The notes under the pieces were generated by a model. It saw only the letters and a program-made list of their open reading frames with translations, ran no database searches and had not been told where the DNA came from. The translations under genes and the position numbers were made by a program. From positions 44,826,001 through 44,890,000 of the forward strand of contig OZ296650.1 in the NCBI GenBank assembly GCA_965655095.1: a DNA stretch of 64,000 nt, in the 5' to 3' direction. The stretch is from Haplodiscus bocki (lineage: Eukaryota). This document shows, in pieces, positions 19,301 to 54,376 of the stretch. Numbering within the stretch: position 1 is the stretch's first letter; every line of letters begins with the position of its first letter.

Positions 19301-20869
19301 AGAAAAAAATTGCTGAAAAAAACGGCTCGACTGTGCTGGAACATCGACGCATTTGAAAACGTAGAGAACTTGACTCTGCCAAAACAAAACGATCAGAGTT
19401 GACATTTCCCTAACAAAAATTGCTAAATTTGGGAAAACGCTAAGAAGACAGGCCTGTAACGCTCTCGAGTGAAACTGCAGCCCAAAACAAATATTGGATG
19501 ACAAAAAAAACAACCAAAAAAGCCAGAGTACCCATTTCTGGTGGACTTCAAAGCAATCAAAAACTCTAAATTTTGAAAACGTTGGAAAACTGTCTAAACT
19601 AGGCAAAAAGTTCTGCTTCGATTTGAGAGAGTAGTAGCTACAAAATTGACTGAGATGTCGGTAGCAACAATCAGAAACGTAAAATTTATTTTCAGACGAC
19701 TCTTCCATTAAGATTCAGTGTAGCTTCGTAGATGAAAGCTGATTTGAAAGGTGAAAAAGAACTTCTATGAGCAAACGACCACTCTAGTTTTTTGCCTGAC
19801 TGTTAAACACCAAAAGTACCACTCGAGACAAAATTTCCAAACATTTGAAAAACTCGTCAAAAGTTAAAACTTTGGATGAATTCAGTTGCATACGTAATCA
19901 AAAAGGTGATTTGAGAGGAAAAATCAAAAACGTTTCGGATATATCGCGAAACAAATGCTATTTTCGGCGACTCGATAATAGTTTTCTTATTTTTCCTCCT
20001 GCTTTTTCATCGGTAAGTTCTCCAACAATTTTGTTTCGGCTTTCAAAAATTTCATAAATAAAAATTAGAAACTGAAGCAAAAGAGAAGAAACTTCGCTTC
20101 AGTTGAACTTCGAGAAACTTCTCTTATACTCTGAGCCAACAAAATATTCAAGGATATATCATTTTCAAACAATTCCACAGCATTTATTCAGCGATCTGTT
20201 TCTGTATCGTATAAGTTTGACTGTTAATGAAAAACTTGATATGAGCGGTATAAACATTAATTCTGGCAAAGTCATATTCCTAGCGTTTCTTGGTTTACTT
20301 GAAACGCGATTTTCTGACCGAACCTTCAAAATTTCAAAAATGGGTGTAGCGCAATCAACATTTTGTTTTGAAGCATGCTAGTTGCGTAACTAAAGAGACA
20401 ATTCGCAAGGCAGGAAACAAGAAAAACCCGGAAAAATGATGAAATCGGCTAATTTTACAAAACAAAACGCAAAGTTTTGCTATTTATCCCCACAAAAATG
20501 AATAATTTCGATAACTTTACATTTATATGTTATAAGTCTAAAGCAACTAAAAATTGATTTTTCTTCATGGATTTTTTTTCATGGAACGCCAAGAAGAATG
20601 AAACGCGATTTTTGGTTGTTTTAGAAAACACAATACTGCAAAAACGGGGATTTGGAAGGCTCAAGACAGGTATTCTAAGTTTTTGCGGTAGAAAATTGCT
20701 TGTTAGTAAGTACGCATCTTTGAATCTTTCCATATAACAACTGAGGTTCAAATCAAAAAGTGAGGCACACGTGTCCAAAGTTTGTCGACTGAAAAAAGTT
20801 GACGTACTCACTATATTACTTTTCGCGTTCGGTTTCGAAATCAAAAATATTCTCCAACCAACGCCAACC

Positions 20870-23560
20870 TTCAGGATCATTACTTTGAAGGAAGGCTTGT
20901 AGAAGGTAGATAAGGCGTAAAATGAGATTGAGTTTTGAAAAGAACCTGCTATACTTGAAATTTCGGGTATATTTGACTGATCAGTTTTTCCATGCAAGGA
21001 ACAAAAGTGCAGATATTATTTAAAAACCTTTCCGCAAGTACATTTCTAACTACTTAAAAAGTGATGGGAAAGACGCAATCGGCCCTTGTGGGGAGAGAGG
21101 TGGTTGAATTGGAAGAAAAATCATCCTTACCGGCAGTTTCGCCGATAAAGTTTTCCAAGCAAGAAAAAAACATGAGAATTTGAGACCGAAAAACATTCGA
21201 AAACATAAATCTGTGGACTGACGTCCAGATGGAAGACAGTTCTGGAGAATGTGTGTATGAATTTCGAGCTATCACATCACCACTTCCACTTTCTGGCACA
21301 ATCAGACTGTCAAGTAGATGTCTCTTCTCGACTGGGAAGTTAATGGAAGAGATCCAAGACGTACTAGTGGGGGGAAATGTGTTTGAATTTAGAGGCAAAT
21401 CATTAGTACTTTCATCCTCTAGAACATTCGGTCCATCAGGTTTTCCACGCAAGCATAGGAACTGAAGATATCAGTATAGCAAAAAAAACCTGCCAAGTAG
21501 AAATTTTTCGATTAATCATTGGATTGAAGACCTGTAGAAAACAGATCAGGGGGTAAAGGTGTTTGCCCCTGAAGGAAAACTTCCAGTATTCGAAATGCCT
21601 GGCATATTCAACCTATCATTTTTTGAACAAGGAACACGGCGGCAGAAAACAGCACTGAAAAATTATCTGTAACTAGATATCAGTCAATTCAGGCCTGGAG
21701 GGAAAAGAGCAATAAGGTAGTTTAGTTCAAAAGGTTAGAAATCCAAGACACTAGTACTACTGGCACTTTCTGGCACAATCGGACCGTCGAATAGATGTCT
21801 CTTCTCGACAGGCAAGTTAATGAAAGAGATCCCAGACGTACTACTGGGGAAAATGTGTTTGAATTGGGAGGCAAATCATTAGTACTCGCATCCTCTAGAA
21901 TATTCAATCCGTGGTTTTTGGTGCAAGAATCAGAACTCAAGATATTAGTAAGGCAAAAAAACTTCCCAAGCAGAAGTTTTTCGATCAATCGATTGATGGA
22001 AGACCTGTAGAAAACAGATAAGGAGGTAAAAGTGTTTGCCCCTGAAAGAAAATCTTCAGTACTTGAAAATTCTGGCATATTCAACCTAGCATTTTTTTAA
22101 ACAAGGAACACGGCGGCAAACAATAGCACTGAAAAACTATTTGTAAATAGATATGAGTCGATCCAGGCCTGGAGGGAAAAGAGGAATAGGGTAGTTTAGT
22201 TCAAAAGGTTAGAAATACAAGAAACTATTACTACTGGCACTTTCTGGGATATTCGACCTATCAAGTTTTCCAACCAAGGAACAGAATCTTAAAAACTAGT
22301 ATTGGAAATTTGCAAGTAGAAGTCTGTCGACCGAAAAGTTTATGGAAGGGATGCAATCGGCTGTTGTGGGGAAAATGTCTTGGAATTTAGGGGAAAATCG
22401 TCACTACTGGCAGTTGAAGTAAATTTGGCTGATCAAGTTTTCCATTCAAGGAAGAAAACTAAGAATTTAATATTGCAAAACTTTCCGAAGGCGAAAATCT
22501 GAAAAACAATTCGCTTATGGAAGATATCAAACGGTTAGTTGTGAGGAAAGTGTATTCGCATTTCGAGATGCATCATCTCCCAATTGCACTCTCTGTAATA
22601 TTCAGTCTGTCAAGTTTTTCGCACAGGAAACAGAATTTAAAAAATGGTATTGAAAAACATTTTCCGGGAAGAACCTTGTCGATAAATACTTTCGTGGAAG
22701 ATTTGTACTAAGTGGTTGCAGGGTGAAATGTTTTAGCGTTAACAAAAAAAGATCCCACTCATCTTGCATACTCATTCTAGCAGGATTTGAACGCAACAAA
22801 AACAGGAGAGCAGGTATTATTGTCAATTGAGAGCCTGATGGAAGATAAACAAACACACACTAACTGCGGGGGAAAAGTTCACCATGAATTTCGAGAAAGT
22901 TCACCACTACTGGCACTTTTTGCACAATCGTGATCAACTCTTCCGCGCAAATAAAAAAAAGCTGTTGTCTTTGAAACACTTTCTGCTAGTAGCAATTTGT
23001 CGAGACAACTTGATTGAAGGTATCCAACCACTAGGGGAAAGCGTGTTTGAATTCAAAGAAGAATCAAAAATACTTGCATTTTCTCGCCGTTGGGACCTTC
23101 CAGATTTTTCATGCAAGGAACACGACCGCAGATAATAATAATGGAAAAACTTCTGAGAGTGAAAATTTATTGATTGACAACTTCATGGAAGATACGCAAC
23201 GCGTAATTAAGGGGGAAATGCGTTTGAATTTTGAGAAAGACCGTTAAAACTTGCACTTTTGGCATACTCCACCCATCAGTTTCTCCAAACAACAAACAAA
23301 ACGGCAAGCAATAACATTGAAAAAGCTTCCCCGGACAAAACTTTTTCCATTCTCACTTCGTAGAAGACTTGTAAATGGTTATTTTGAAGAAAGTATGTTT
23401 AAATATCGAGCAAATCATTACTACTTGCAAAATGAGTCATATTTGGCCAACAAAGTTTTCGACGCACGCAATGAAACGGAAAACATTATCGTCGAATCAC
23501 TTGCAAGCAAGAATCCGTAAATTGAAAACTTGCAAAAGGATTCCAATCCCGTATTCTTCA
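20870..23560. repeat. Highly diverged ~175-bp tandem satellite, block 2
   Basis: Same motifs at about 22098, 22270, 22443, 22620, 22790, 23110, 23286 and 23463. Higher-order ~477-bp duplication 21285-21760 / 21762-22250. Confidence 0.75.
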
Positions 23561-38283: not shown

Positions 38284-38551
38284 AAAACGGAATGAACGAA
38301 CGAAGAATATGATTATGAACGAAATAATATCCGGTTTATAAAACGGAATGAACGAATGATGAATATGAACGATGAATATGATTATGAACGAAATAAAATC
38401 CGGTCCATAAAACGGAATGAACGAACGATGAGTATGAACGATGAATATGATTATGAACGAAATATTATCCGGTTCATAAAATGGAATGAACGAACGATGA
38501 ATATGAACGATGAATATGATTATGAACGAAATAATATCCAGTTCATAAAAC
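38284..38551. repeat. ~69-bp minisatellite in the hAT, split by the MULE (continues 53127-53190)
   Basis: Unit AAAACGGAATGAACGAACGATGAATATGAACGATGAATATGATTATGAACGAAATAATATCCGGTTCAT, starting at about 38284, 38340, 38409 and 38478. Confidence 0.9.
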
Positions 38552-38727
38552 GGTAACGTCTCATAGCTCCGAAATTAGGAAACTAGGTGCATAACTCCGA
38601 ATAAAGTCAGCGTACCTAGAGTTTATTTAGTAGCATTTTCGCAGCAATTAAAAGACCTAATTGAGAGGCGGAAGTAAATACAAAATGAATGAATTGATTA
38701 AAATAAATAAAATCAAGTAGTCCCGAT

Positions 38728-40232: not shown

Positions 40233-40941
40233 TTTAACAACCGTAATTTTATTGGAAAATTGGCAGCAAGAGTTTAGAGTTCTCATTTCTTTCAATATTT
40301 CGGATGCGAGGACGGTTGTTTGTGTTAGGTACTCTTTGGGATTGTTCTAAGAGAAAAATCTAGTTTTTGCTTTAAGACTGAATTTAACTTTAATATTTTA
40401 ACACAGTTCACTTACATTAATGATGATCAGAAGAATAGCAAAGTGTCCAGAGTTTTTCTTTCTTTTTTTCTTCTTTTTCAAGCAGCTTCTTCTCGTTTCG
40501 CTTCTGTGTTCCAATGATCGCTGATTTTTCTTTTTGTTGCTTTTTTTCTTGTTTCGAATTCACGATTATTCAAGTTTTTAAACAGGATAACAATTAACAG
40601 CAGAATGTTGGAGGATTCATGTTTTTAAGATAATTTACAAGTTTAGATTAACATGAAAGTTTATAAATTGAGGCCTGGTTATAAGTTTAGATGCGTATGA
40701 AAATCAACAAGTTAGGACTGGAATATAAGGTAACATATGAAAATGATAGTTTATGATAAGATATTTTGCCACTTCAAGTGTGAGTTTACTTTGCTAATTG
40801 AATACAAACTGAAACATGATTGTTTTAAAAGAGGCCTGTTTATGGGGCTGGGGGACGAAAGATGAAAATATTAATCTCAAGTGGATGACAAGTATTTGCT
40901 TGCAAGAGTTGTTCGTACAGGTTCATACAGGGGCCGCTACA
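40233..40941 (-). repeat. 3' LTR (709 bp)
   Basis: Only one mismatch to the 5' LTR seen by eye (g40659 vs c52698). Preceded by the PPT; AATAAA at 40253-40248. Confidence 0.96.
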
Positions 40942-40954: not shown

Positions 40955-40994
40955 GCAGGAAATTGCGTCCGCGCAATTGTAGGGAAGAGAAAAA

Positions 40995-42075
40995 TCAGGA
41001 TGTGGAGAAGAGCATGAATAATTGTGGGAATTCACAGCGGCCTTGCTTGGTAAAATTGTCATCAGCGTCTCGAGGGGTGCAACGGTAGCAACGAAGAGAA
41101 GAATCCAGGAGGCGACGGAATCCGAGAAGACCACAGTGGTCATACACTTTGCGAAGGCCAGGATGTGTTAACACACGTTTGATGTTGGTAAGGAGGGGAA
41201 CAAGACGAGAGGCAGCTACGGCGTGGTCGGTAGTGGGTGAAGCTTTGTCAGGGTGTAGGCAGCGTAGGAGTGTGTTGGCATGACGGACAAGTGTAGACAT
41301 ATCGGCGGAAGGGTTGCAGCAAAGAAAATGATAGAATGTGTCGTCCGGTGTGGCAGGGTCGTTAAAATCAGTGGGAAGAGATAAGAGATGATGTTGAATC
41401 ATAGAAGCCAACGCTTTGGTGTGGGAGCCGTCTAAGGAGGTGAGTTGAGTGCGGAGGGAACTAATTTCGTCAAGATGTCGGAGGGAATCAGCCATCAGGC
41501 TATTGTGAGTACGGTTTAAGTCAGCCAAGGAAGAACGGAGTTGTTGAGATTCAGCTGTGAGCTGTTCAATTTGCTTGCGGGCGGAGGCAGCAGCCAAATC
41601 TGCTTCAGTGTACATATCGTAAAATACTTCAGCCTCACGCCGGGCATCTTGGAAAGCCTTGTCCAGTTGGGTGACAGAAGAGAAGTCGGTAGTAATGGTG
41701 ACCCAATCATTGAGAGCGGTCTCTGTATCCATGTTGGCTTGGGTGGATGTATCCATGACGTCGGGGAGAACGGGAGGAGGCAAGGGTTCTGGGCAGAAAC
41801 AGTTTGTTGTGGGGAGGTCAGCGGAGGCAAAAGTTTCAGAAGTAGTGGGTGGAGGCAACCAGATTTGGCGGATTGAACGCTTAAAAGGACGGTCTCTCGA
41901 ATTGATCTTTTGTAAACAAACGGAATCACTGTCTGGGGACAACTTGGTGATGCGATATTGGATGTCCTCTACCAGATACACATGATCACCGACAGCGACA
42001 GGGTGGATGCGTCCAGAACTTATTAGCACAGGGTGGCGGCGGGCAGGGTGGGTGCTGAAGAAGTTGAAGTTAGAC
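40995..42075 (-). CDS. Accessory ORF: SH3/KOW-like N-terminus, coiled coil, DnaJ J-domain (HPD) and CxxC; predicted 360 aa after splicing
   Basis: Open frame with no in-frame ATG at its 5' end, preceded by a branch/polypyrimidine/acceptor run ctaaac...ttcttgatgtttcag|G. The C-terminal TFYHFLCCNPSADMSTLVRHANTLLRCLHPDK...[15 protein letters not shown] (41342-41130) is in register with the DnaJ consensus. Confidence 0.82.
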
Positions 42076-42174
42076 CTGAAACATCAAGAAGTGAGACAAA
42101 TACAGTTTAGGTAAAAAGTGACAAAAGGGAGAAGAAAAAAAGAAAAAGTGGAGGGGGGAAAAAGGGGAAGGTGG

Positions 42175-42366
42175 CATACGGAAACGTATGACGAGATGAG
42201 AAGGCGCCAATGGCAGCGGGACACGGAAACGTGTCTCAAGGTGTGAGGCGTGGGTGCGGTGCGTACCGCGAGCCCCAGGAAGGAGGCAGAGGCACGGAAA
42301 CATGCCGAAAACGCACACAATTGCAATAGCGGAAGGAATTGGAGAAATGAAACGCGGAAACGCGTT
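42175..42366 (-). other. Array of four 6-bp hairpins with identical UUUC loops
   Basis: Minus strand: AACGCG-TTTC-CGCGTT (42366-42351), GGCATG-TTTC-CGTGCC (42306-42291), GACACG-TTTC-CGTGTC (42235-42220), CATACG-TTTC-CGTATG (42190-42175). Confidence 0.85.
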
Positions 42367-42481: not shown

Positions 42482-44887
42482 TTAAGTAGTAGATTCGGAG
42501 TACAGAGGCACAGTAACAGTAGGATACACACTAGTGAGTGGGGGGTTAGGGTGAGAGTAGTTAGTAGGAGGGTGAGTGGGTAAGGCGGCAGCCGGAGGGT
42601 TGGGTGAGACTAAGGGTGGGGTCTGGTCACGAAGAGTTGCATGAGCGAGAGCCTGCAGGGCCTGAAACTCTTGCACTGAAAGGTACAAGAAAGAAGAGTC
42701 TGTGTCATGTGAAGTCGGAGGGGCGTCCACAATGTGCAAGAACTTGCCAGATGTACCACGGAAAAACCGTTGAGGGTGGGCAAAGAGACGTTTCCATTGG
42801 CGACGGAAGAGGGTAAAACTGATACTGAAGGTAAGGAGCGAGATAGTAATGGAGACGACCGAAAAACAGATAGCTGTACGGGTGGGGAGATAAGAGGATA
42901 AGGCTGCAGAGGTCGCCGGAGAGACAGAAGAATAATACTGAGCGATGGGTCGTGTTAGCTCAGCAAGGGATTCGCTGGACATGGTTTTAACATTAGGGGG
43001 TTCGGCTAATTCCAACCGAACGCTGCTAAGGACTGAGTGACGGGCTTCCGTCACAGAATATGTGTGGAAGGTACTGGTGGTGCGGGGAACATGCTGAAAG
43101 ATCTGATCCAGAGAAGGAGTAAGTTGTATTTTGGCCAAGAAGGGTTCGGGTTTAGTTTTGCAGAAATCGAGGTCAGGGCGAAGTTCCAAATCACCTTGAT
43201 TGAAAGAGAGGGTGCTACTGCAACTGGGGCGGATCAAGCAAGCTTTACAAGAGAGGGTAGAAATAGAAAAGTCAGAGCCACTGTCATTCTTCATCTGTAT
43301 GTGAGGGTCACGAGAGATAATATGATATAAACCATCGGCTAAATAAAAAGCTTGAGGAGCGTCAGGCAGAAGGACAGATTCTACTTTACAGTTACGAAGA
43401 GCGGGTATATCGTAATTATAGTATAAAGAAGGTAAACAAAGTAAGGTTTCGTCCGTAGTGGTCGAAAAACCTTGACGACAGAGTTTAATGCGGTTATTAC
43501 CAGAACATTGCTGAAGGCTGGCGGCATCGAGCTCAGCAAAACGGGAATTGTCAGTAGATATGGCTAGAAGAGGGTTGGGGAAGTGATACAAGGAAGCGGT
43601 ATCGCCATCATCGTTAGGCTGGTACAAGGGAATGGCGCGATAGACGTTGAAAGGTCTCTTGGAGTTCATCGGAACGCCGAGGACAACCGAAATACCTTTG
43701 GGGAGAAGGGAAACTTCTAAAACCATTTGGAGTTCATAGTAGATGGCTTCCTGGCCCACATGGATGGCAGGCGAGAGTTTGGTGCCACGAAGAATCTCGT
43801 CATGGGCAAGTTCGCTGACAATGGAAGCCAGTTGGGAAGGGAGGAGGAATTGAGGGCTGACATACCCAGCAGCCAGTGACGAAATCGTGGAATAGAGCGC
43901 AATCTGATAGGCGTAAAAAGCGGCTCTGTAGGATTTAACATGTGCGTACAGTGTTCCCAAATGATCAATATAATCCCGAATTTGTTGCAAAAAAGACATA
44001 CTGTGTATAAGTTGTTGATTACAAACCGGAAGGTTGGCTATCACGCCTTTGATTTCCATTAATTCTTTTTCCAGGGCTTTTAACTGTGTGCCCACGAGTT
44101 TTGTTATCTTGACCACACTGTCCTGTGTGTCTTTGATTTCGTTACCAAGCAAGAAAAATTTTTCATCATTTTTCGTTTGAACGCGTTGCAGAACATCTTG
44201 AAACTGATTTTGAGTAGCTAAAATTCCATCAATGTCGTTTTGTAAATCTGTAGTATCTGTGCAAAGGTTAAAAATAGAGAGCGCTGAACATGCAGCCTCT
44301 TTGACCGGGTCACCCAGAGCCAGTCCCGCGGCTCCCGCAGCCGCTGCGATGAGTCCAATTGCCCGTTTGCCTCTTGAAGGCGCGTCATGCGGGTGAATCG
44401 AAGGCGGTAAGAAGGAAGAAGCCATCGTCACCAAATTGTGTTGATCTGTCTGTGCAGCATGAATTTCATTTTCCAATACTTTCAATTTTTCTTCGAGTCG
44501 ATTAAACAAGTTGTCGTATAAGTGTTCCATGTCTGAGGTGTGACACAGCTTAACCGAGGACATGCCTGCGAGGGTATCGGAATGTCCACGTTGTTGGAGG
44601 ATAGTATACGCGTTGGTCAAGTTAATATCAGGGATCCTTGGGAACGGTGAGAACACACGAACCTTACTCTCACTTTCCGGTGTCACGGCTTGAAATTGAA
44701 AGACAAAAGCAGCACCTTTCTTGAAAACAGGGTCGTCCAATGAATCGCTCAAATGTGTTGTGAACTGGACGTCAGCACAGACGTTGAGAAAGGAGGATAA
44801 AAATGGGAGAAAAAAGAAAGGGGTGGGTGACGTCATATAGCTGGGGTGTCTCCTAAATAAAGAGAAGATCATACAATCATTCGGCAT
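42482..44887 (-). CDS. env: Env, class I fusion glycoprotein (F-type)
   Basis: Signal-like FFFLPFLSSFLNVCA, furin site RGKR (44374-44363) and fusion peptide AIGLIAAAAGAAGLALG. Then heptad repeats, a Cys-rich region, TM AICFSVVSITISLLTFSISFTLF and a long Pro-rich tail. Splice acceptor tcttctctttatttag|G at 44853/44852 predicts a 790-aa product. Confidence 0.92.
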   Translation of the reverse strand: MPNDCMIFSLFRRHPSYMTSPTPFFFLPFLSSFLNVCADVQFTTHLSDSLDDPVFKKGAAFVFQFQAVTPESESKVRVFSPFPRIPDINLTNAYTILQQRGHSDTLAGMSSVKLCHTSDMEHLYDNLFNRLEEKLKVLENEIHAAQTDQHNLVTMASSFLPPSIHPHDAPSRGKRAIGLIAAAAGAAGLALGDPVKEAACSALSIFNLCTDTTDLQNDIDGILATQNQFQDVLQRVQTKNDEKFFLLGNEIKDTQDSVVKITKLVGTQLKALEKELMEIKGVIANLPVCNQQLIHSMSFLQQIRDYIDHLGTLYAHVKSYRAAFYAYQIALYSTISSLAAGYVSPQFLLPSQLASIVSELAHDEILRGTKLSPAIHVGQEAIYYELQMVLEVSLLPKGISVVLGVPMNSKRPFNVYRAIPLYQPNDDGDTASLYHFPNPLLAISTDNSRFAELDAASLQQCSGNNRIKLCRQGFSTTTDETLLCLPSLYYNYDIPALRNCKVESVLLPDAPQAFYLADGLYHIISRDPHIQMKNDSGSDFSISTLSCKACLIRPSCSSTLSFNQGDLELRPDLDFCKTKPEPFLAKIQLTPSLDQIFQHVPRTTSTFHTYSVTEARHSVLSSVRLELAEPPNVKTMSSESLAELTRPIAQYYSSVSPATSAALSSYLPTRTAICFSVVSITISLLTFSISFTLFRRQWKRLFAHPQRFFRGTSGKFLHIVDAPPTSHDTDSSFLYLSVQEFQALQALAHATLRDQTPPLVSPNPPAAALPTHPPTNYSHPNPPLTSVYPTVTVPLYSESTT

Positions 44888-44911: not shown

Positions 44912-47900
44912 TTAGTGCTGGTTAGACAGAGCAGAAGGCATTGTGTTTGTCAGCCTCCGTGGAGAAAGGAAGTCCGTCAGATCGCGGGGTAAGCGAGAGC
45001 GGAAAAGAGGTTGTGCTTTTCGTTGAGTAACTGTGTTAGGTCGGAGGGTACGTTTGTTGGGGGGACTGCGGCTGTGTAGCTCGCGAGCAGCGCGGCGGAC
45101 AATATTCTCCACCGGGGAGAAAGGGGAGCTCGTAGGCGGGGAGTTGGTAAACGGAATGGTCCTGGGTTGATTGGAAGATGGCGTAATACGGGAAGGAGTT
45201 GAGGGTTGGGATGGCAAGGAGCAGGAGCGAGGCGTTAAATCGTAGGGAAGTGTGGAGGCAGTTATACTCGGTGAAATAGGTGGCGAGATATGAGAATCAA
45301 CGGGGACATTGCTGGCTGGGGTGTTGTCGGTAGGGGTCGGAAGCGGGTGGCTGAACCACGGCGAGGGAGCAAAGAGAGTAGGAGGAGGTAAAAACGAGAC
45401 AACGCAGTCATCGTGGTTGACGGTCTTCGAGGAGGTCTGCGAGTTCATCGGCTGAGCAGGTCCAGGAGGTGAAGGTCGGGTCGGTATTGTCGTGGAGGGA
45501 GGCGGAATGCCATGGTATCGTTTGAGGCGATCATAATGAACAATTTGCTGTTTGCCAGTAGAGAGCTCTTCAATTTTGTAGTTAACGTCATTGATGCACT
45601 TCAGAATGCGGTAGGGACCGCGCCAGGGGCTGGATAGTTTTGGACTTTGGCCAGGTACAGTAACGTCGTAGTGGAGAAGAACAAAATCATCCTCTCTGTA
45701 TGTGGGGCCGTGGACTTTCCTGTTGTAGAGAGCGTTGCGACGGCGTTGTTGAGCTGTAGTATTTCGCCGAACGAGTTCGAAAGCTCGGTGAAATTTCTGT
45801 TGTTGTGTCATCACATATTCATTGATGTTAGTTGGGATGTGGCTTTCGGGAGGCGGATACATCAAGTCAAGAGGAAGCAAAACCTCATGTCCAAGGACCA
45901 GACGGTTCGGAGTGAAACCGGTTGATTCGTGGACGGAGGACCGATATGCCATCAGGACGAAGGGAAGGAAATAAGACCAGTTAGATTGTTGTTTGTCGAT
46001 ACTTTTGGTGAGCATATTCAATAATGTGCGGTTCATGCGCTCAATGACTGAGTTTGACTGTGGGTGGAAAGAAGTGGTCCGTGTCTTATTGATTTCGAGC
46101 AAAGTCATCAGGCGCTGAAACAAGGCTGATTCGAAATTACGGCCTTGGTCCGTGTGAATGCTGTTAGGGCATCCAAAACGGCAAATCCAGTGTTCAAGTA
46201 GCGCATCGGCAGTAGTGGAAGCTTGCTGGTCTGGCAGAGGTATCGCCTCGTACCATTTGGTGAAATGGTCGCCAATCACAAGAATAAAGCGGTTGCCATT
46301 AGAAAGGGGAAGTGGGCCAAGAAAGTCGAGACCAATGTGATGGAAGGGGTAGCTGATCTTCCAGTCAACTAAGGAATGGCGGTGGGTCTTTGGGGGTCCA
46401 GACTTCTTTTGACAAACATCACAACATTGGATGAATTGCTTGACATCTTCTTTAAATCTGGGCCAGTAAAAACGTTGACGCACTTTTTCAATGACTTTGT
46501 GCGTTCCCAAATGACCAGCGGTTTTAGAACTGTGTAAAGCCGTCAAAATTTCTGGTACCATGGATCGCGGAATAATCTTTTGTAGGAAGGGCAAATTACC
46601 GTCAAGTGGTTCAAACTTTCGACAAAGCACGTTGTTTTTGATGTGGAGACTAGTTAATTGGTTGAACATTTGCCATCCTAAACGAGGGAGTCCTTGCAGT
46701 TCATCATTCCGAGGTACACGACTTTGTCGAATCCATTTCCGAACCTGGTGTAAGCTTTCGTCAGCTTCCTGTGCTTGTACCAAGGCGTTGTCATTGAAAT
46801 CGGAGTTACAGTCGTTCTCCTTAGGGTCTACTGGAGTTTTCAGAAAAACAGTAATGTGAACAGGGGAGGTACGAAAAACTTCCTGAATCAGTTGGCGTAC
46901 TTGCTCCCATTCGAGCTTGTCGAGGCCAGAGCCGATACATGGCAAACTAATTTTGTAAACGTGATGCTGTTCGGCGTGCGATCGCATTCTTTCCAAGGAA
47001 GCGCGCAAAGTTCCGTAAGTTGGTTTTTGAGAGAACTTCTGTTTTGTAACTAAATGGTAGATGTATCGTTTGGATTCAGGCAACCATTGGGGCCAAAGGG
47101 GGTTCGTGATGTGATTCCATCCAGTTGGGTAAGTACAAGGGTAGTTACGGCGAATCTTTCTCGCTATACCGGCCGACATTTTGAAGTCAGCGGACACACA
47201 GTGGCCAAAGGAATCGTGGGTATCGAAAAGGTTTCCGACGGTTTCACGGTAAATTCCGATTGCTTCATCTTGCTGTTGAGTTGTTGCATTCGTCATGGGG
47301 GAATCGATGTGATGTTGGTCAGAATAGTAACTATCGTCGTTCACTTGCGCCTGATAGGTGGGCGAGTCATTGGGTCCCAGGTGTTCTTCAAACGGGAATG
47401 AAGGGTTGTTTGTTTCTGCTACTGTATTTACGGAAGATGGAATTCGTGAGAGTCCATCGGCATGTCCAATAGACTTTCCAGGACGATGTCGAACATCGTA
47501 ATCAAAAGGTGCCAACTTTTCCAACCAGCGAGCAGTTATTCCATCAGGGTCTTTGAAATTATGCAACCATTGAAGTGCTCGGTGATCCGTTACAATGGTG
47601 AACTTACGTCCCAGTAAGTAGTGTCTGAAGTGACGGGTGAAAGTTACAATGGCCAAGAGTTCACGGCGAGTTGCTGAGTACTTGCTTTGGGTCTTAGAAA
47701 GAGCCTTGGATGCGTAACAGACTGCTCGTTCCAAACCATTTTGTTCCTGAGCCAAAACAGCGCCCATGGCGAATTGGCTGGCGTCCGTATATAACACAAA
47801 TGGCTTTTGAAGTGACGGGTATGCTAAAATTGGAGTGGTCGTCAAACGATGTTTCAACGAGTCAAAGGAATTTTGTGCTGCGTCGTTCCATTGAAACTCA

Positions 47901-49771
47901 GAAGACGTTTCACTTGCTTTGTGTAAGGGTCGAGCGATTTCAGCAAAATCCTTGACGTAACGGCGATAGTAGGAGGCTAAGCCTAAAAAGGACTTCACTT
48001 GCGTCTGGCTGGTGGGGGTTGGAAATTTAAGTACTGCATTGACTTTCTCGGGGTCCACTTGAAGTCCATCTTTACTGACAATGTGCCCAAGGAACTGTAC
48101 CTTCGTTTGAAAGAAAGCGCATTTCGAAGGATTGATTTTCAAGTTGGCCTGTTGGAAACGTTGAAATACTTGGCGTAAACGTGAAAGGTGTTCCTCCGGG
48201 GTCGTGGAGAAGATGATGCAGTCGTCGAGATAGGGTACACACGTTTTCCACGTAAGGCCAGTAAGGACATGTTCCATTAAGCTTTGGAAAGTGTTTGGGC
48301 TTCCAGTTAGTCCCATCGGCATTCGCAGCCACTTGAATGATCCAAAGGGTGTGCTAAAGGCAGTGTAGTCTTGGCTGTCCCTGTCCATTGGTACTTGATA
48401 AAATCCAGCAGACATATCAATTGTAGAGAAATAACAGCTTCCGCCCAGTGTGTCGAAGATTTCTTCAATAGACGGGATCGGCCAACTAGATTTGATAGTC
48501 TGCTTGTTGAGTTGGCGGTAATCAATAACAAGACGCAACTTTCCATTTTTCTTTGGCACTAGCATAGCAGGAGAACTGTACGGACTATGACAAGGTGCGA
48601 TCAAGTCTTTCTCCAAAAAGACATCAAGTTTGGACTGCAAATCCTCCTTATAGTGCAATGGCATTCGGCGATTAGGAATTTTGATCGGTTTGGAGCCAGG
48701 GTAGACATCAATCTTGTGATTGGTAGCGTCACACTTACCCAAGTCCCATTCTGAGGACGAAAAAACGTGCCTGAATTCTTTGACGAGTGCGGCAAAGTGT
48801 TGATGGTATTGTTGGTGAATGGTTGGATCAACTGAGGTGATCACTGTTTGCAAGTCATATTTCGAGGAGTCTGTCCGATTTTGTAAAGATCCTGCCGCCG
48901 GAGATTCGCTGGGGGCCGGCAATGGGCGACTAACATTATTGATAATGTCATCAGATACAAATTCGGATGACCCAAGAGTTGTGTTTTTGTAGATCGTGAT
49001 CTCGGAGTCCGTTGTGTTAGTCATTATGACAGGGATCATCTCGTCAGAAAAATCAAAAAGTATGTTGAGAGCTGAGATATTTTCACTCATAGTGAATTTC
49101 TCCAAAGGTTCAAAAACGGCATTGAGGTGGAAAGGTGGTCTCTTCCAATTTGGAATGTGTGCTGGAAGAATTGTTGCATGGCCTGCTGGTACGTTAATGG
49201 TTTCGGTCGCAACGACTCGAAAGATAGCATTGTGGTCAATTTCAAAATTTTTGTGGTAGAGGGGGACAGAATGGGTTGAGTCCAATTTTAACTCCATTCG
49301 TGAAAACAAGGGGTCGCATTTATGGCGTTCTAAGAAGTCCAAACCTAAAAGGCAGTCAGCTTCTGATTTCTCCAAAACTCGAAACTCGTGATGGAATAAT
49401 TTGTTTCCCACATATACTGGTACTCTGATGAGGCCTTTCACATCAATCGGCAGTCCATTTGCCGCTCTCAGGTTTTTGTTGCAGGTGTCCAAGGTTATTT
49501 GATAAGTTTTCTTCAATTCGTTGTAAATCTCAGAGCTTAGACAAGACACACTTGCTCCACAATCGCATACTGCTTCCACATCTTTGTCTAAAATTTTCAA
49601 TCGAACAAAGACACTGCGCGAATCAACCATCGAATTTAAACCAAATGTTCGTTGTGGGCCCTTTTTATTGTTCAAGTCTGCGCGAGGACCCTTTTGCGTA
49701 GACTGTTTTAGTTTTCCTGGTTGGATCGTTGCATAGGACAGTCTCGTCGGAAATGTCCAACGCGAAGGCAA
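44912..49771 (-). CDS. pol: Pol polyprotein: protease, dUTPase-like spacer, RT, RNase H, macrodomain, integrase (GPY/F), Pro/Ser-rich tail
   Basis: Motifs: VCDCGAS (PR); LRLVIDYRQLN, MPMGL, YLDD (RT); YTDAS, ELLA, TDH, ADGLSR (RH); H-x6-H...CDVC, LDFLGP, TDQG, ERMN (IN); WRGPY. Probably translated only through the frameshift near 49711. Confidence 0.97.
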   Translation of the reverse strand: MPSRWTFPTRLSYATIQPGKLKQSTQKGPRADLNNKKGPQRTFGLNSMVDSRSVFVRLKILDKDVEAVCDCGASVSCLSSEIYNELKKTYQITLDTCNKNLRAANGLPIDVKGLIRVPVYVGNKLFHHEFRVLEKSEADCLLGLDFLERHKCDPLFSRMELKLDSTHSVPLYHKNFEIDHNAIFRVVATETINVPAGHATILPAHIPNWKRPPFHLNAVFEPLEKFTMSENISALNILFDFSDEMIPVIMTNTTDSEITIYKNTTLGSSEFVSDDIINNVSRPLPAPSESPAAGSLQNRTDSSKYDLQTVITSVDPTIHQQYHQHFAALVKEFRHVFSSSEWDLGKCDATNHKIDVYPGSKPIKIPNRRMPLHYKEDLQSKLDVFLEKDLIAPCHSPYSSPAMLVPKKNGKLRLVIDYRQLNKQTIKSSWPIPSIEEIFDTLGGSCYFSTIDMSAGFYQVPMDRDSQDYTAFSTPFGSFKWLRMPMGLTGSPNTFQSLMEHVLTGLTWKTCVPYLDDCIIFSTTPEEHLSRLRQVFQRFQQANLKINPSKCAFFQTKVQFLGHIVSKDGLQVDPEKVNAVLKFPTPTSQTQVKSFLGLASYYRRYVKDFAEIARPLHKASETSSEFQWNDAAQNSFDSLKHRLTTTPILAYPSLQKPFVLYTDASQFAMGAVLAQEQNGLERAVCYASKALSKTQSKYSATRRELLAIVTFTRHFRHYLLGRKFTIVTDHRALQWLHNFKDPDGITARWLEKLAPFDYDVRHRPGKSIGHADGLSRIPSSVNTVAETNNPSFPFEEHLGPNDSPTYQAQVNDDSYYSDQHHIDSPMTNATTQQQDEAIGIYRETVGNLFDTHDSFGHCVSADFKMSAGIARKIRRNYPCTYPTGWNHITNPLWPQWLPESKRYIYHLVTKQKFSQKPTYGTLRASLERMRSHAEQHHVYKISLPCIGSGLDKLEWEQVRQLIQEVFRTSPVHITVFLKTPVDPKENDCNSDFNDNALVQAQEADESLHQVRKWIRQSRVPRNDELQGLPRLGWQMFNQLTSLHIKNNVLCRKFEPLDGNLPFLQKIIPRSMVPEILTALHSSKTAGHLGTHKVIEKVRQRFYWPRFKEDVKQFIQCCDVCQKKSGPPKTHRHSLVDWKISYPFHHIGLDFLGPLPLSNGNRFILVIGDHFTKWYEAIPLPDQQASTTADALLEHWICRFGCPNSIHTDQGRNFESALFQRLMTLLEINKTRTTSFHPQSNSVIERMNRTLLNMLTKSIDKQQSNWSYFLPFVLMAYRSSVHESTGFTPNRLVLGHEVLLPLDLMYPPPESHIPTNINEYVMTQQQKFHRAFELVRRNTTAQQRRRNALYNRKVHGPTYREDDFVLLHYDVTVPGQSPKLSSPWRGPYRILKCINDVNYKIEELSTGKQQIVHYDRLKRYHGIPPPSTTIPTRPSPPGPAQPMNSQTSSKTVNHDDCVVSFLPPPTLFAPSPWFSHPLPTPTDNTPASNVPVDSHISPPISPSITASTLPYDLTPRSCSLPSQPSTPSRITPSSNQPRTIPFTNSPPTSSPFSPVENIVRRAARELHSRSPPNKRTLRPNTVTQRKAQPLFRSRLPRDLTDFLSPRRLTNTMPSALSNQH
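46841..47254 (-). other. TARG1/OARD1 (DarG-like) macrodomain inside Pol
   Basis: GNLF...FGHCVSADFKMSAGIA...RYIYHLVTKQKFSQKPTYGTLRASLERMRSH...ISLPCIGSGLDKLEWEQVRQLIQEVF...ITVF aligns closely with human OARD1 (GDLF...LAHCISEDCRMGAGIA...[31 protein letters not shown]...[26 protein letters not shown]...ITVY). Confidence 0.92.
49656..49717 (-). promoter_or_regulatory. -1 ribosomal frameshift signal (G GAA AAC plus H-type pseudoknot)
   Basis: GGAAAAC sits directly before the gag stop, and pol is in the -1 frame (CAG GAA AAC TAA vs CCA GGA AAA CTA). After a 6-nt spacer come stem 1 AGUCUACGC/GCGCAGACU and stem 2 GGGUCCU/AGGGCCC. Confidence 0.8.
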
Positions 49772-51123
49772 TTAAAACAGGCTTGACACTCATGAGAAGC
49801 ATGGTTTCTTCGTTTACAATGTCGACATTCTTGATTTTGGGGTTGGTATCTGGGAGATGTCTTGTTGCTGTTGCTATTCATAGGCTGGTGATTTCCGGCA
49901 TTCTTGCTGTGTGTATTGTAACGCATTGATTGATTGTGTCTATAAGGTGATTCACTGTTGTTTGTGCGTCCACGGTCCTCTTCGAATCGAACCGATCGGG
50001 ATTTGAACCCATTTTGTCTGTCATACGAGGTACTCCGGTCATTACGGTGGGTTGCCCTGTTTTCTGATCTGTCTCCTGAATTACTTCTGTTGTCATATCT
50101 GTTGGATCTCCGTTCGTCGTTTCTTGGTTCGAAATTTTGTCGATAATGTTTCTGTTCATTGGATCCGCTTCTATTCCGATTTGGGTCACTAGTGCGATAC
50201 TGATTCCGACCTCTTTCGGGCGAGTTTTGTCTTCTGTGGATCGACGACTTCAATTCATTAATTTCTTTTCTAAGGCTTTTGACGAGTTCATTCATAGGGT
50301 CTGTTTGCAAAGCGTTGGCTGCGATTGAATTAATACTGCTCGGGAACAAGGAGCTAGCCGAAGCATTGTTCTGACGCTCCAGAGCAAGGAAAGAGTCTAG
50401 TTCAATGGCCATTGTCAGGGCTTCATCGGCTGTTGATGGTTTCGTTTTTCTCAGTTCCCATCGGAGAGTGGAACTTTGCAATCCCTCGATGAAACTGGTG
50501 AGGACGATTTGGTCTATCAGATGCGGATGGGCACGGTATGCTCGGCGTGCCAATGTTCGAATATCACAGAGGAAAGTTGCAATATCTTGACTTGGTTGCT
50601 GCTTCGCAGCTTTTAATCGTGCTTTCAAAATGTCCACATTGGTTGTGTAATTTTGTCTGAACGCGTCGACAAGGAGGTCAAAATCATTCTGTTGTTCGGG
50701 TGACAATGTGGTGTAAAAATGAAGTGCATTGTCCCTCAATCGAAGTGCAAAGTACTGGGGACGATTGTCGTGTCGGGAAGAGTGCCATCCCGAGAGCATC
50801 GCGGCCGTGTTGAACTGTTGGAGATAATCTTCAAAGTCTCCTGATCCAGTAAATGAGTCAGGCATCAGGCATGACGGCAGGGTACTAGTGGGGTTGAAAT
50901 AAAAACCACCAGGTCCCATCTGGGCAGTTGGAGCTGCTCCATGGCCCAAGAGTGTCGAAAAATGAGGTCCGGCCGAAGCGGATCCACCTGCTTCGTGTCG
51001 CGCAGCAAATCCCGGGGTTGAGTGAGGGTCATTTGAGTTTGTAACTCTGGATCTTCTTGGCGCGTCTGCATCTCTTTCTTCGAATTCGTTGACATTGATG
51101 TTACTTTCTCCCACTTCAGTCAT
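49708..51123 (-). CDS. gag: Gag (471 aa)
   Basis: Retrotransposon capsid-like region (FTGSGDFEDYLQQF...FIEGL), an Arg/Ser/Asn-rich region, and two CCHC knuckles (CRHCKRRNHASHEC, CFNCLRVGHFRRDC). Confidence 0.95.
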   Translation of the reverse strand: MTEVGESNINVNEFEERDADAPRRSRVTNSNDPHSTPGFAARHEAGGSASAGPHFSTLLGHGAAPTAQMGPGGFYFNPTSTLPSCLMPDSFTGSGDFEDYLQQFNTAAMLSGWHSSRHDNRPQYFALRLRDNALHFYTTLSPEQQNDFDLLVDAFRQNYTTNVDILKARLKAAKQQPSQDIATFLCDIRTLARRAYRAHPHLIDQIVLTSFIEGLQSSTLRWELRKTKPSTADEALTMAIELDSFLALERQNNASASSLFPSSINSIAANALQTDPMNELVKSLRKEINELKSSIHRRQNSPERGRNQYRTSDPNRNRSGSNEQKHYRQNFEPRNDERRSNRYDNRSNSGDRSENRATHRNDRSTSYDRQNGFKSRSVRFEEDRGRTNNSESPYRHNQSMRYNTHSKNAGNHQPMNSNSNKTSPRYQPQNQECRHCKRRNHASHECQACFNCLRVGHFRRDCPMQRSNQEN

Positions 51124-52271: not shown

Positions 52272-52980
52272 TTTAACAACCGTAATTTTATTGGAAAATT
52301 GGCAGCAAGAGTTTAGAGTTCTCATTTCTTTCAATATTTCGGATGCGAGGACGGTTGTTTGTGTTAGGTACTCTTTGGGATTGTTCTAAGAGAAAAATCT
52401 AGTTTTTGCTTTAAGACTGAATTTAACTTTAATATTTTAACACAGTTCACTTACATTAATGATGATCAGAAGAATAGCAAAGTGTCCAGAGTTTTTCTTT
52501 CTTTTTTTCTTCTTTTTCAAGCAGCTTCTTCTCGTTTCGCTTCTGTGTTCCAATGATCGCTGATTTTTCTTTTTGTTGCTTTTTTTCTTGTTTCGAATTC
52601 ACGATTATTCAAGTTTTTAAACAGGATAACAATTAACAGCAGAATGTTGGAGGATTCATGTTTTTAAGATAATTTACAAGTTTAGATTAACATGAAACTT
52701 TATAAATTGAGGCCTGGTTATAAGTTTAGATGCGTATGAAAATCAACAAGTTAGGACTGGAATATAAGGTAACATATGAAAATGATAGTTTATGATAAGA
52801 TATTTTGCCACTTCAAGTGTGAGTTTACTTTGCTAATTGAATACAAACTGAAACATGATTGTTTTAAAAGAGGCCTGTTTATGGGGCTGGGGGACGAAAG
52901 ATGAAAATATTAATCTCAAGTGGATGACAAGTATTTGCTTGCAAGAGTTGTTCGTACAGGTTCATACAGGGGCCGCTACA
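52272..52980 (-). repeat. 5' LTR (709 bp)
   Basis: Direct repeat of 40233-40941. Reads TGTAGCGGCC...GTTGTTAAA on the minus strand. Candidate TATAAA 52704-52699, AATAAA 52292-52287; followed by the PBS. Confidence 0.96.
52449..52457 (-). promoter_or_regulatory. Putative major splice donor AAT|GTAAGT inside the 5' LTR
   Basis: Perfect GTAAGT donor at 52454, preceded by AT. Joining it to the G that follows the acceptors at 44852 or 42075 creates an in-frame ATG for env and for the J-domain ORF. Confidence 0.7.
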
Positions 52981-54376
52981 GAATAAAAAATTCGGAGCTA
53001 TGAGATTCAATTTTCAATTCGGAGTTATGTATGATACCAAAATACAAATTCGGAGTTATGATACCAAAATAATAAATTCGGAGTTATGATACCAAGATAA
53101 TAAATTCGGAGCTAAGAATAGCCACCTCATAAAACGGAATGAACGAACGATGAATATGATTATGAACGAAATAATATCCGGTTCATAAAACGAATGAGCC
53201 GGATAACACAAATAAAAACTTAGCTTGCTGTATTTAGTTTAATTTCAACGCCTCTGATTGGTTCATTAGTTTGCGGATTGAATTTGATTTAAATCGAGAA
53301 GGAATTATTGCACCGCTGAGCGGTGCTGAAATGTTACTACGGCGAGCTCGCTGTGATTGGTCGAACGGTCCACAGCTCACTCGATAATAATTTTAATTAT
53401 TACAGTTGAAATTAATATTTCAACTGGGACCCTGGACCCAGTTGACCCATGCTTAGATTTTGAATGGGTTGACCCAATGACCCTGGACCCTTTTTCATCT
53501 CTGTGCAGATACATTCGGAAACTTTGTAGAAACAGCTACTAGACTAAAAAATGAAATTTTCAATTTATTACAGCTCATCCGTTTATACCCGGAAAGCTGC
53601 TTCAAATTTAGTATTCAGATTCAAAAATAGATTTTCTCAGGAATAAAGATGTTACTCTTTTTAGAGAATAACACTAGAGGTGGGGGGTCAGTAGTTTTAT
53701 GGGTGCTCGTTATTTACAACGTGAGAATGAAAATAAGTTGATCTACATTGAAGGTAATAATAAATGAGTCAATATCTTCCAACAGGAGACTTTGTAAGAG
53801 TTCCATAAATCTATGAGAATGATGAGGGAAGGAGAAATTGAACTTATTCCATGGGACAGTATATACGCCGGATGATAATCCAAGTCGGTCAACGTGACTT
53901 TTTTAGCCACCTGGATCAAAAAAAAAACCGAAAAATTTTCATTTTGTCTAGAAAACAAAACATTTCCCCAACTATTCAGAGAATATACAAACCGGGAAAA
54001 TAGAAAAAATATGAACCAACTTCGATGTTGATCTATGATTAGATGGTTAAGATTAAACATAAGCTAGAAGAAAGAATGCATTCATTTTGAAGAAAAAATC
54101 ATAATTATCAAGGAATGATAGTTACAAAGATTGTTCGAAGATGCTGAAGATCAGCATGGTTACAAAAATGAAGACAGCGTTTTTACAGAAATTAGGTCGA
54201 ACGCAAAAAACTCAAGTTTTGAAGAAGATCTACAAAAACTAGAAGAAGTCATATTGTGGAAAGACAAAGCAGATGGCTAGAGATAGAGTAGCGATCGCGT
54301 CCACTTAGGTTTTAGTCCCAATAACGACATATCGCAGACTATTGAGATGCAGTCTTAATTATTATTCGACGGTATC

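Follow-up and report, generated by a model that had tools for sequence, protein, structure and literature searches.

A conserved hairpin array between env and an accessory J-domain gene in env-bearing Ty3/gypsy elements of Haplodiscus bocki

A row of four short hairpins, found in the 398-nt non-coding gap between env and a fourth open reading frame (ORF4) of a minus-strand LTR element in Haplodiscus bocki, is a conserved cis-acting RNA array that is apparently undescribed. It is almost certain that the array is a real structure and that it has been selected on the sense RNA. The window in which it was found is a stretch of 64,000 nucleotides (assembly GCA_965655095.1, contig OZ296650.1, positions 44,826,001 to 44,890,000), and it was analysed together with related loci. 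Positions in the text and in Table 1 are those of the window.

Results

The host element

The LTR element is flanked by an ATTC target duplication, and its two 709-nt LTRs differ by a single base. At least 14 near-identical copies (93–100%) are present in the 1.5-Gb assembly. The open frames are gag, pol, an F-type env and ORF4. The features of Ty3/gypsy elements were all found, i.e., LTRs, gag, the order PR-RT-RH-IN and an env-like third ORF. The host of the array is a young, intact env-bearing Ty3/gypsy element, and it fits the F-env "ancient errantivirus" class as set out in the main text of PMC13524379.

Several other features of the element and its surroundings were observed. Both LTRs end in TG...AA, not in TG...CA. 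The Macro domain of pol (~46890–47070, minus strand) lies between RNase H and integrase and was detected by Pfam with an E of 6e-5, above the cut-off. An A/U-G-C-G hairpin on the minus strand at 40962–40979, after the ORF4 stop and before the purine tract, recurs in distant families (L054, L067, and L103) and might serve in plus-strand priming or as a signal for the 3' end. A 69-nt tandem repeat is found on both sides of the element (38284–38553 and 53131–53192), and the element may have been inserted into a repeat tract. Host DNA at 16700–23300 contains degenerate repeats with a period of ~170–480 nt.

Table 1. Features of the element and of its hairpin array, in window coordinates
Feature	Position	Strand	Remarks
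LTR element	52980-40233	minus	
5' LTR	52272..52980	(-)	709 nt; 99.86% identity to 3' LTR
3' LTR	40233..40941	(-)	preceded by purine tract
5' LTR signals	TATA-like site 52704; AATAAA 52292	(-)	
Predicted splice donor AT/GTAAGT	52449..52456	(-)	in LTR; slash marks the splice junction
gag	49708..51123	(-)	double zinc knuckle
pol	44912..49771	(-)	protease, RT, RNase H, Macro domain, integrase
Predicted env acceptor	AG 44854-44853	(-)	phase equals that of ORF4
env	42482..44852	(-)	F-type fusion protein; RGKR furin-like site; Baculo_F E 0.002, below cut-off
H1	42351..42366	(-)	AACGCG-UUUC-CGCGUU
H2	42291..42306	(-)	GGCAUG-UUUC-CGUGCC; one U·G pair; most conserved unit
H3	42220..42235	(-)	GACACG-UUUC-CGUGUC; outer pair G-C, A-U or C-G in other families
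H4	42175..42190	(-)	CAUACG-UUUC-CGUAUG; loop start 109 nt before ORF4 acceptor
Polypyrimidine tract and predicted ORF4 3' splice site	42076..42174	(-)	AG 42077-42076; first exon base G 42075
ORF4	40995..42075	(-)	359 codons after junction; first internal Met ~107 codons in; also CxC motif and C-terminal Cys motif
ORF4 KOW/Tudor-like barrel	~42029-41841	(-)	
ORF4 coiled coil	~41684-41436	(-)	
ORF4 J domain	~41336-41139	(-)	with HPD

Four hairpins in the window

The env stop is 116 nt before H1. H1–H4 all possess perfect 6-bp stems and a G-UUUC-C apex, with loop spacings of 60, 71, and 45 nt. This is exactly what the first-pass annotation had described, i.e., four 16-nt hairpins with different stems and a common apex, 45–71 nt apart, and the description also held against shuffled sequences. 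More than one same-loop hairpin was found in none of 5000 dinucleotide shuffles of the 398-nt gap, and more than one within 250 nt in none of 300 shuffles of the whole element. As shuffling gave no second same-loop hairpin, chance is excluded, and the four hairpins are not accidental. The 8-mer count alone is a weak indicator, its 4 matches being reached by 5 of 100 shuffles.

All four hairpins were present in the MFE and centroid structures, and their pair probabilities were 0.93–0.95 on the sense strand in a 620-nt context. Folding energy alone does not separate the two strands (z of -4.26 for sense vs. -3.71 for antisense). On the antisense strand, three of the hairpins form and H2 does not form fully.

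Conservation of the array

At least one hairpin was kept in all 30 loci gathered by DNA similarity (71–100%). In an alignment of 17 loci, the hairpin columns were 89% identical and the spacer columns 56%, and the U·G pair of H2 was found in 16 of the 17. Loci were also sampled without regard to hairpins, 20 from an env search and 20 from a distant-ORF4 search. The 20 env-picked loci all contained at least two hairpins; 18 of the 20 ORF4-picked loci contained at least three, and the remaining two had one each.

A 14-base pattern of H2 matched the genome 606 times, compared with 13 matches for the reversed control. From the first 100 matches listed, 60 loci were taken, those already in the sample being left out. 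Among these 60, env was upstream and ORF4 downstream in 56, two had ORF4 only, one had env only and one had neither; ORF4 was directly downstream in 58.

Recognisable acceptors were found in 81 of the loci L001–L090, and the other nine were dropped. The 81 loci comprised six multi-locus families and two singletons, and an intact copy typically contained 3–6 hairpins. The first-pass annotation had staked its proposal on the presence of the hairpins in related elements, and the array was found to recur in six multi-copy families, with ORF4 identity to the window down to ~28%. The array always precedes the phase-conserved acceptor of ORF4. In ten natural full-length elements, such hairpins were single elsewhere and clustered solely in the env-ORF4 gap. 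In one family (L054, L062, L065, L067, L086, L087, L089, and L090), a G-UUUC-C hairpin with a C/U wobble change was also observed ~178 nt inside the ORF4 coding sequence.

The ORF4 profile recovered 193 representatives at E up to 0.001. The metagenome scan returned one locus, L162, whose env identity was 98% and in which the array was present; L162 is probably of the same lineage. No array locus was found in the viral contigs scanned, and no P0030-like family above 49% identity was found in this assembly. A hidden coding function of the gap was also considered. Open frames do exist there in the window; however, each family examined has its own stops and indels. With no frame conserved along the gap, coding constraint was rejected.

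Covariation and strand

Instances for the covariation analysis were chosen on the core YG-NNNC-CGY alone, and further positions were then checked for pairing. Stem positions 3, 4, and 5 were paired in 90, 84, and 87% of 91 distinct instances, respectively, vs. 33, 53, and 35% of 43 ORF4 controls. All three pairs were formed in 66 of the 91 instances, compared with one of the 43 ORF4 controls and one of 20 instances from host DNA. The pair types included A-U/G-C, C-G/U-A, and G-C/A-U. Mutual information was highest on the pairing diagonal (p=0.0005 each), with one off-diagonal cell at p=0.006. The first-pass annotation had called the hairpins covarying, and this is true between hairpin copies and between families, but not of orthologous stems, which are mostly invariant. 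At orthologous positions 97% of cells pair, and two-sided change was found in 3 of 24 pairs, no more than shuffling gives (219 of 500), and the alignment of helix 3 includes some non-orthologous units.

The stems in the families were often 5 bp in length. The loops of the 91 instances were UUUC in 45, UAUC in 8, UGUC in 8, UCUC in 7 and others, of which the final C was fixed by the way in which the instances were selected. The apex consensus over the families was YG-NNNC-CGY. The common UUUC apex proposed earlier holds in the window, but family-wide only G-NNNC-C and the adjacent C-G/U·G pair are fixed.

The U-G pair of H2 had also been taken as favouring function in the sense RNA, and the present results agree with it. 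H2 is incomplete on the antisense strand, and wobbles shared by at least three loci of a family were G·U vs. A·C at 7:0 on the sense strand, a count that represents ~5 independent events. The private non-Watson-Crick pairs, at 23:19, are as neutral decay predicts.

Predicted splice geometry

The predicted ORF4 acceptor is YAG/G after a pyrimidine tract, and its phase was the same in 34 of the 37 loci whose ORF4 frame is long and open. The env acceptor had the same YAG/G phase in six of six elements of the apex type (NNNC in the loop). An AT/GTAAG donor was upstream of gag in four of these six elements and was not found in two. In 9 loci the same donor was also found past ORF4, within the region of the 3' LTR; the predicted donor is inside the LTR and upstream of the poly(A) signal, so that it is also present at the 3' end of the element.

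Joining of the donor AU to the first exon G would make the start codon of both env and ORF4. AU-donor splicing of env that creates a start codon has been reported for the springer subclade (PMC12992720, accessible text). From one LTR donor and two same-phase acceptors, three RNAs are predicted: genomic, env, and ORF4. Since the LTR donor would be shared and the array precedes the ORF4 acceptor, the array is predicted to stay in the genomic and env RNAs and to be absent solely from the ORF4 mRNA. The earlier statement that the array is kept in genomic and env RNAs and spliced out of the J-protein mRNA is supported at this level, i.e., by predicted splice geometry only. Four sequence runs from a single study, consisting of contigs of uncertain type, contained no joint at the predicted sites, which speaks neither for nor against such splicing. 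In the apex-type families, the distance between the last hairpin and the acceptor was 79–207 nt. An internal promoter for ORF4 was considered as well and is unsupported, as there is no donor between the array and the acceptor and no early Met.

The ORF4 protein

On comparison of coding sequences, ORF4 is under purifying selection (dN/dS of 0.08–0.21 in six informative pairs; a seventh pair was uninformative). The structure model of ORF4 consists of a beta-barrel, a long helix and a J domain. HPD was found in all 13 aligned ORF4 proteins. The top Foldseek matches of the J domain were J domains, with TMt up to 0.81 and E above 0.001, and the Pfam DnaJ match was below the cut-off. The barrel alone matched the KOW domain of Spt5 with a Z of 7.9 (rmsd 1.9, 55 aligned) and the Tudor domain of SMN with a Z of 7.5, a generic likeness that is tied with protein-binding Tudor domains. 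No sequence match to the barrel was found in Pfam or PDB. Its atlas matches, which included integrase C-terminal SH3 clusters, were all under 0.9 and are a lead only. An R-x-F-x-R motif of the barrel was kept in the apex-type families.

Variant arrays in distant families

Three env families of greater distance were chosen, with env as the sole criterion. In two of them ORF4 is complete, and the place of the array is taken by one of another kind, whose units are NNNC[hairpin]AG. The numbers of these units were 10, 8, and 6 in L097, L098, and L103, respectively, vs. shuffle means of 0.2–0.3. When the hairpins were selected without their flanks, 26 of 34 had AG on the 3' side and all 26 had C on the 5' side, L097 and L098 being relatives. 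In L097 and L103, 10 of 16 flanks were among the six commonest apex-type loops vs. a background of 25% (p=0.002, the units of one array not being independent). The form was kept in 11 of 12 further relatives, in which loops have changed and at least one stem shows a compensatory change; the loci of this outgroup form are L097–L108 and L163–L174. The occurrence of NNNC in the loop in one form and at the helix base in the other is likely a circular permutation; alternatively, the NNNC[hairpin]AG unit could be a stem with a bulged A. One similar unit was flagged by script in L162 and seen by eye in the env of the window (42953–42979, minus strand), possibly by chance.

Both families with NNNC[hairpin]AG have lost the R-x-F-x-R of the barrel, and the Gag zinc knuckle differs little among the 10 elements. 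This joint change of ORF4 and motif is a single branch of the pol tree, which shared descent explains equally well, and co-evolution is not proven.

The third family was nested among the apex-type families by pol (97/97), and its short accessory genes are without coil or J domain. In this multi-gene lineage (L094/L096, L118–L119; G000:C2, ~9108700–9111000), up to four short post-env genes replace ORF4: a Cys-rich ORF of RING-like type, a barrel-like ORF, another Cys-rich ORF and an ORF4 homologue that consists of the barrel only. Each of these genes has its own predicted acceptor. Copies that are 99% alike in env differ in their post-env gene content. Single GC-rich hairpins were 15–32 nt before three of four acceptors in one element and two of two in another, the hairpin-less fourth acceptor of the former being found by eye. 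The env acceptors had no hairpin motif.

Discussion

A possible role in ORF4 feedback

The array is quite possibly, though short of probably, a multivalent site on which ORF4 would dock so as to restrain splicing or license export. Once ORF4 was made, its binding to the array would repress splicing to the ORF4 acceptor or license export, and genomic and env RNAs would accumulate. The barrel would read the unpaired NNNC beside a short helix, the coil would make the binding multivalent, and the J domain would bring Hsp70 for remodelling of the RNP. The outcome would be a Rev-like negative feedback made of unrelated parts. The first-pass annotation had likewise suggested an analogue of a Rev/Rex response element, possibly bound by the accessory protein of the element itself, and this reading is preferred here too. 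ORF4 feedback is favoured because the hairpins accompany accessory acceptors, are predicted only in intron-retaining RNAs, and are multiple where the coil is present and single where it is absent.

The pairing of the H2 pattern with both env and ORF4 in 56 of the 60 sampled matches is consistent with docking of ORF4, and so are the hairpins before accessory acceptors (3/4 and 2/2) in multi-gene elements whose env acceptors are without the motif. Moreover, the type of array and the loss of R-x-F-x-R change together while the Gag zinc knuckle is similar throughout, and a barrel gene without coil and J domain goes with single hairpins, not arrays. The modelled likeness of the barrel to KOW and Tudor folds may point in the same direction, and RNA-binding J proteins act in splicing, such as Cwf23 (10.1101/2024.06.27.600868, accessible text). 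However, the barrel match is generic, the co-change with the motif is one branch, the wobble count of 7:0 is only ~5 independent events, and the two-sided changes in orthologous pairs (3/24) are not above shuffles. In addition, the G-UUUC-C hairpin inside the ORF4 of one family would remain in the ORF4 mRNA, the AU donor was found in four of six apex-type elements and not in two, and a distance of 79–207 nt between hairpin and acceptor is too far for a direct block.

A wider proposal is a Rev-like circuit of Ty3/gypsy elements, in which a spliced KOW-barrel/coil/J protein would bind the array before its own acceptor, Hsp70 would switch output from accessory to env and genomic RNA, and the RNA code would be permuted between families, giving family-specific RNA-protein pairs in one genome. 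We doubt this proposal in so complete a form and put it forward as speculation.

Other explanations of the array

A host protein might instead bind the array in the same role, i.e., control of splicing or export in the manner of a CTE or an intronic splicing silencer, with UUUC as a possible decoy of the TTTCAG acceptor. This fits all of the positional and structural evidence. An NNNC tetramer that stays constant although the ORF4 barrels differ strongly is what one unchanging host reader would be expected to leave, and the NNNC[hairpin]AG unit of the outgroup resembles an acceptor split by a hairpin. Nevertheless, a switch of architecture among families of one genome is easier with a reader encoded by the element, no matching Rfam family was found, and a host binder appears unlikely. 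A role as a 3'-UTR control of env and genomic RNA, whether in localisation, in translation or in shielding the RNA from nonsense-mediated decay downstream of the env stop, would suit an array that begins ~100 nt past that stop, within a pyrimidine-rich stretch, and is predicted to stay in the env mRNA; each hairpin of the multi-gene lineage is also downstream of a stop codon. These latter hairpins, however, are 15–32 nt from the next acceptor and at least 100 nt from the previous stop, and we consider such a control improbable.

Retroviral packaging signals are typically arrays of short tetraloop hairpins, and the leader of the element is without such a cluster, both of which would suit a packaging or dimerisation signal for the Gag nucleocapsid. 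The first-pass annotation had listed packaging among the possible functions of the array, and it is now disfavoured because the env mRNA is predicted to carry the array as well. The Gag knuckle, moreover, is similar in families with different array motifs, and the 60 sampled matches, of which one had neither gene, contained no class of env-less, ORF4-less derivatives that keep the array. A packaging role is thus decidedly improbable. It is very unlikely that the array acts as DNA or as antisense, whether as palindromic CpG-rich protein sites or as GNNA-loop hairpins (antisense loop GAAA) in minus-strand DNA or antisense RNA. Three of the four hairpins are equally or more stable in antisense, and the antisense loops of the commonest variants would be GAAA, GAUA, GACA, and GAGA. 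Yet the half-sites covary, which double-stranded sites need not do, the shared wobbles all favour the sense strand, H2 fails in antisense, 25 of the 91 loops break GNRA, and the outgroup arrays have the tetramer outside the loop.

The first-pass annotation had also likened the hairpins to the histone mRNA 3' stem-loop, and mimicry of the latter could recruit SLBP or 3'hExo. The resemblance lies in the 6-bp stem and the 4-nt U-rich loop. As far as the accessible parts of bioRxiv 10.64898/2026.10.14.759114 and PMC10388802 describe it, the histone stem-loop carries a U as its third loop nucleotide, a G-C as its second stem pair, and two flanking A on the 5' side and one on the 3' side; it lies 25–60 nt past the stop codon and has a purine-rich element downstream of it. 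U at loop position 3 was found in all four hairpins of the window and in 76 of the 91 distinct family instances. The G-C at stem position 2 was present in H2 only and missing in the other three, and the adenine flanks, including the two 5' adenines, were found in none of the four. The array is 116 nt past the env stop and is followed by pyrimidine tracts, with no purine-rich element after any hairpin. Unlike the histone structure, the hairpins form an internal array; stems in the families are often 5 bp, and there is no Rfam match. With most of the defining features failing, the likeness does not hold, and recruitment of the histone factors is barely credible.

Comparison with known systems

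The CTE of MPMV/SRV is located after env. It is a cis RNA structure needed by unspliced RNA (PMC3856414, accessible text), as the array may be, but the hairpin units here have no internal loops and no Rfam match, and a spliced accessory gene follows them. Similar to the Rev/RRE, Rex/RxRE, Rem and Rej systems (PMC3856414), a structured cis element is predicted to be present in RNAs that retain an intron, together with an accessory protein that is here predicted from the most spliced RNA, whose mRNA is without the element, and with multivalent binding that is here putative. Different from those systems, the element is Ty3/gypsy and not a member of Retroviridae, the array is a dispersed row of independent hairpins of 14–18 nt and not one branched structure, and the candidate protein is of the barrel/coil/J-domain kind, with no demonstrated CRM1 export signal. 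By analogy, the array may resemble a Rev/Rex response element or a CTE in its role, and by sequence or structure it is a member of neither. No match above the gathering score was found with Rfam, including its models of response elements and CTEs, in the element or eight related loci.

The order gag-pol-env and the F-type env are shared with the "ancient errantiviruses" (PMC13524379), and a start codon made from an AU donor, which is a prediction here, with the springer subclade (PMC12992720). The Macro domain in pol, the fourth, spliced J-domain gene and the hairpin array set the present element apart from these. The main text of PMC13524379 makes no mention of a Macro domain, DnaJ, stem-loops or splicing; its supplements may include relatives. 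It is known in general that env can be followed by additional ORFs (PMC6431247, accessible text). Similar to the spliceosomal J proteins Cwc23/Cwf23/DNAJC17 (10.1101/2024.06.27.600868, PMC13388955), ORF4 combines a J domain with a candidate RNA-binding domain. The latter, however, is a KOW/Tudor-like barrel and not an RRM, and homology is seen in the J domain only. No description of the array or of a J-domain gene after env was found in the open-access literature, which is limited evidence of novelty.

Significance

Even with a host reader, the results would comprise an RNA motif without an Rfam match and a retroelement J-domain gene not found in the open-access literature. Rev, Rex, and Rem are self-encoded post-transcriptional switches that are regarded as a mark of complex vertebrate retroviruses, and little is understood of the way in which env-bearing Ty3/gypsy elements set the balance of genomic, env and accessory RNAs when these come from a single donor. 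The system found here is compact, with units of 16 nt and a candidate binding domain of 60 residues, and it comes with natural variants in which the stems are changed, the copy number is changed, the motif is permuted, or the coil and the J domain are lost.
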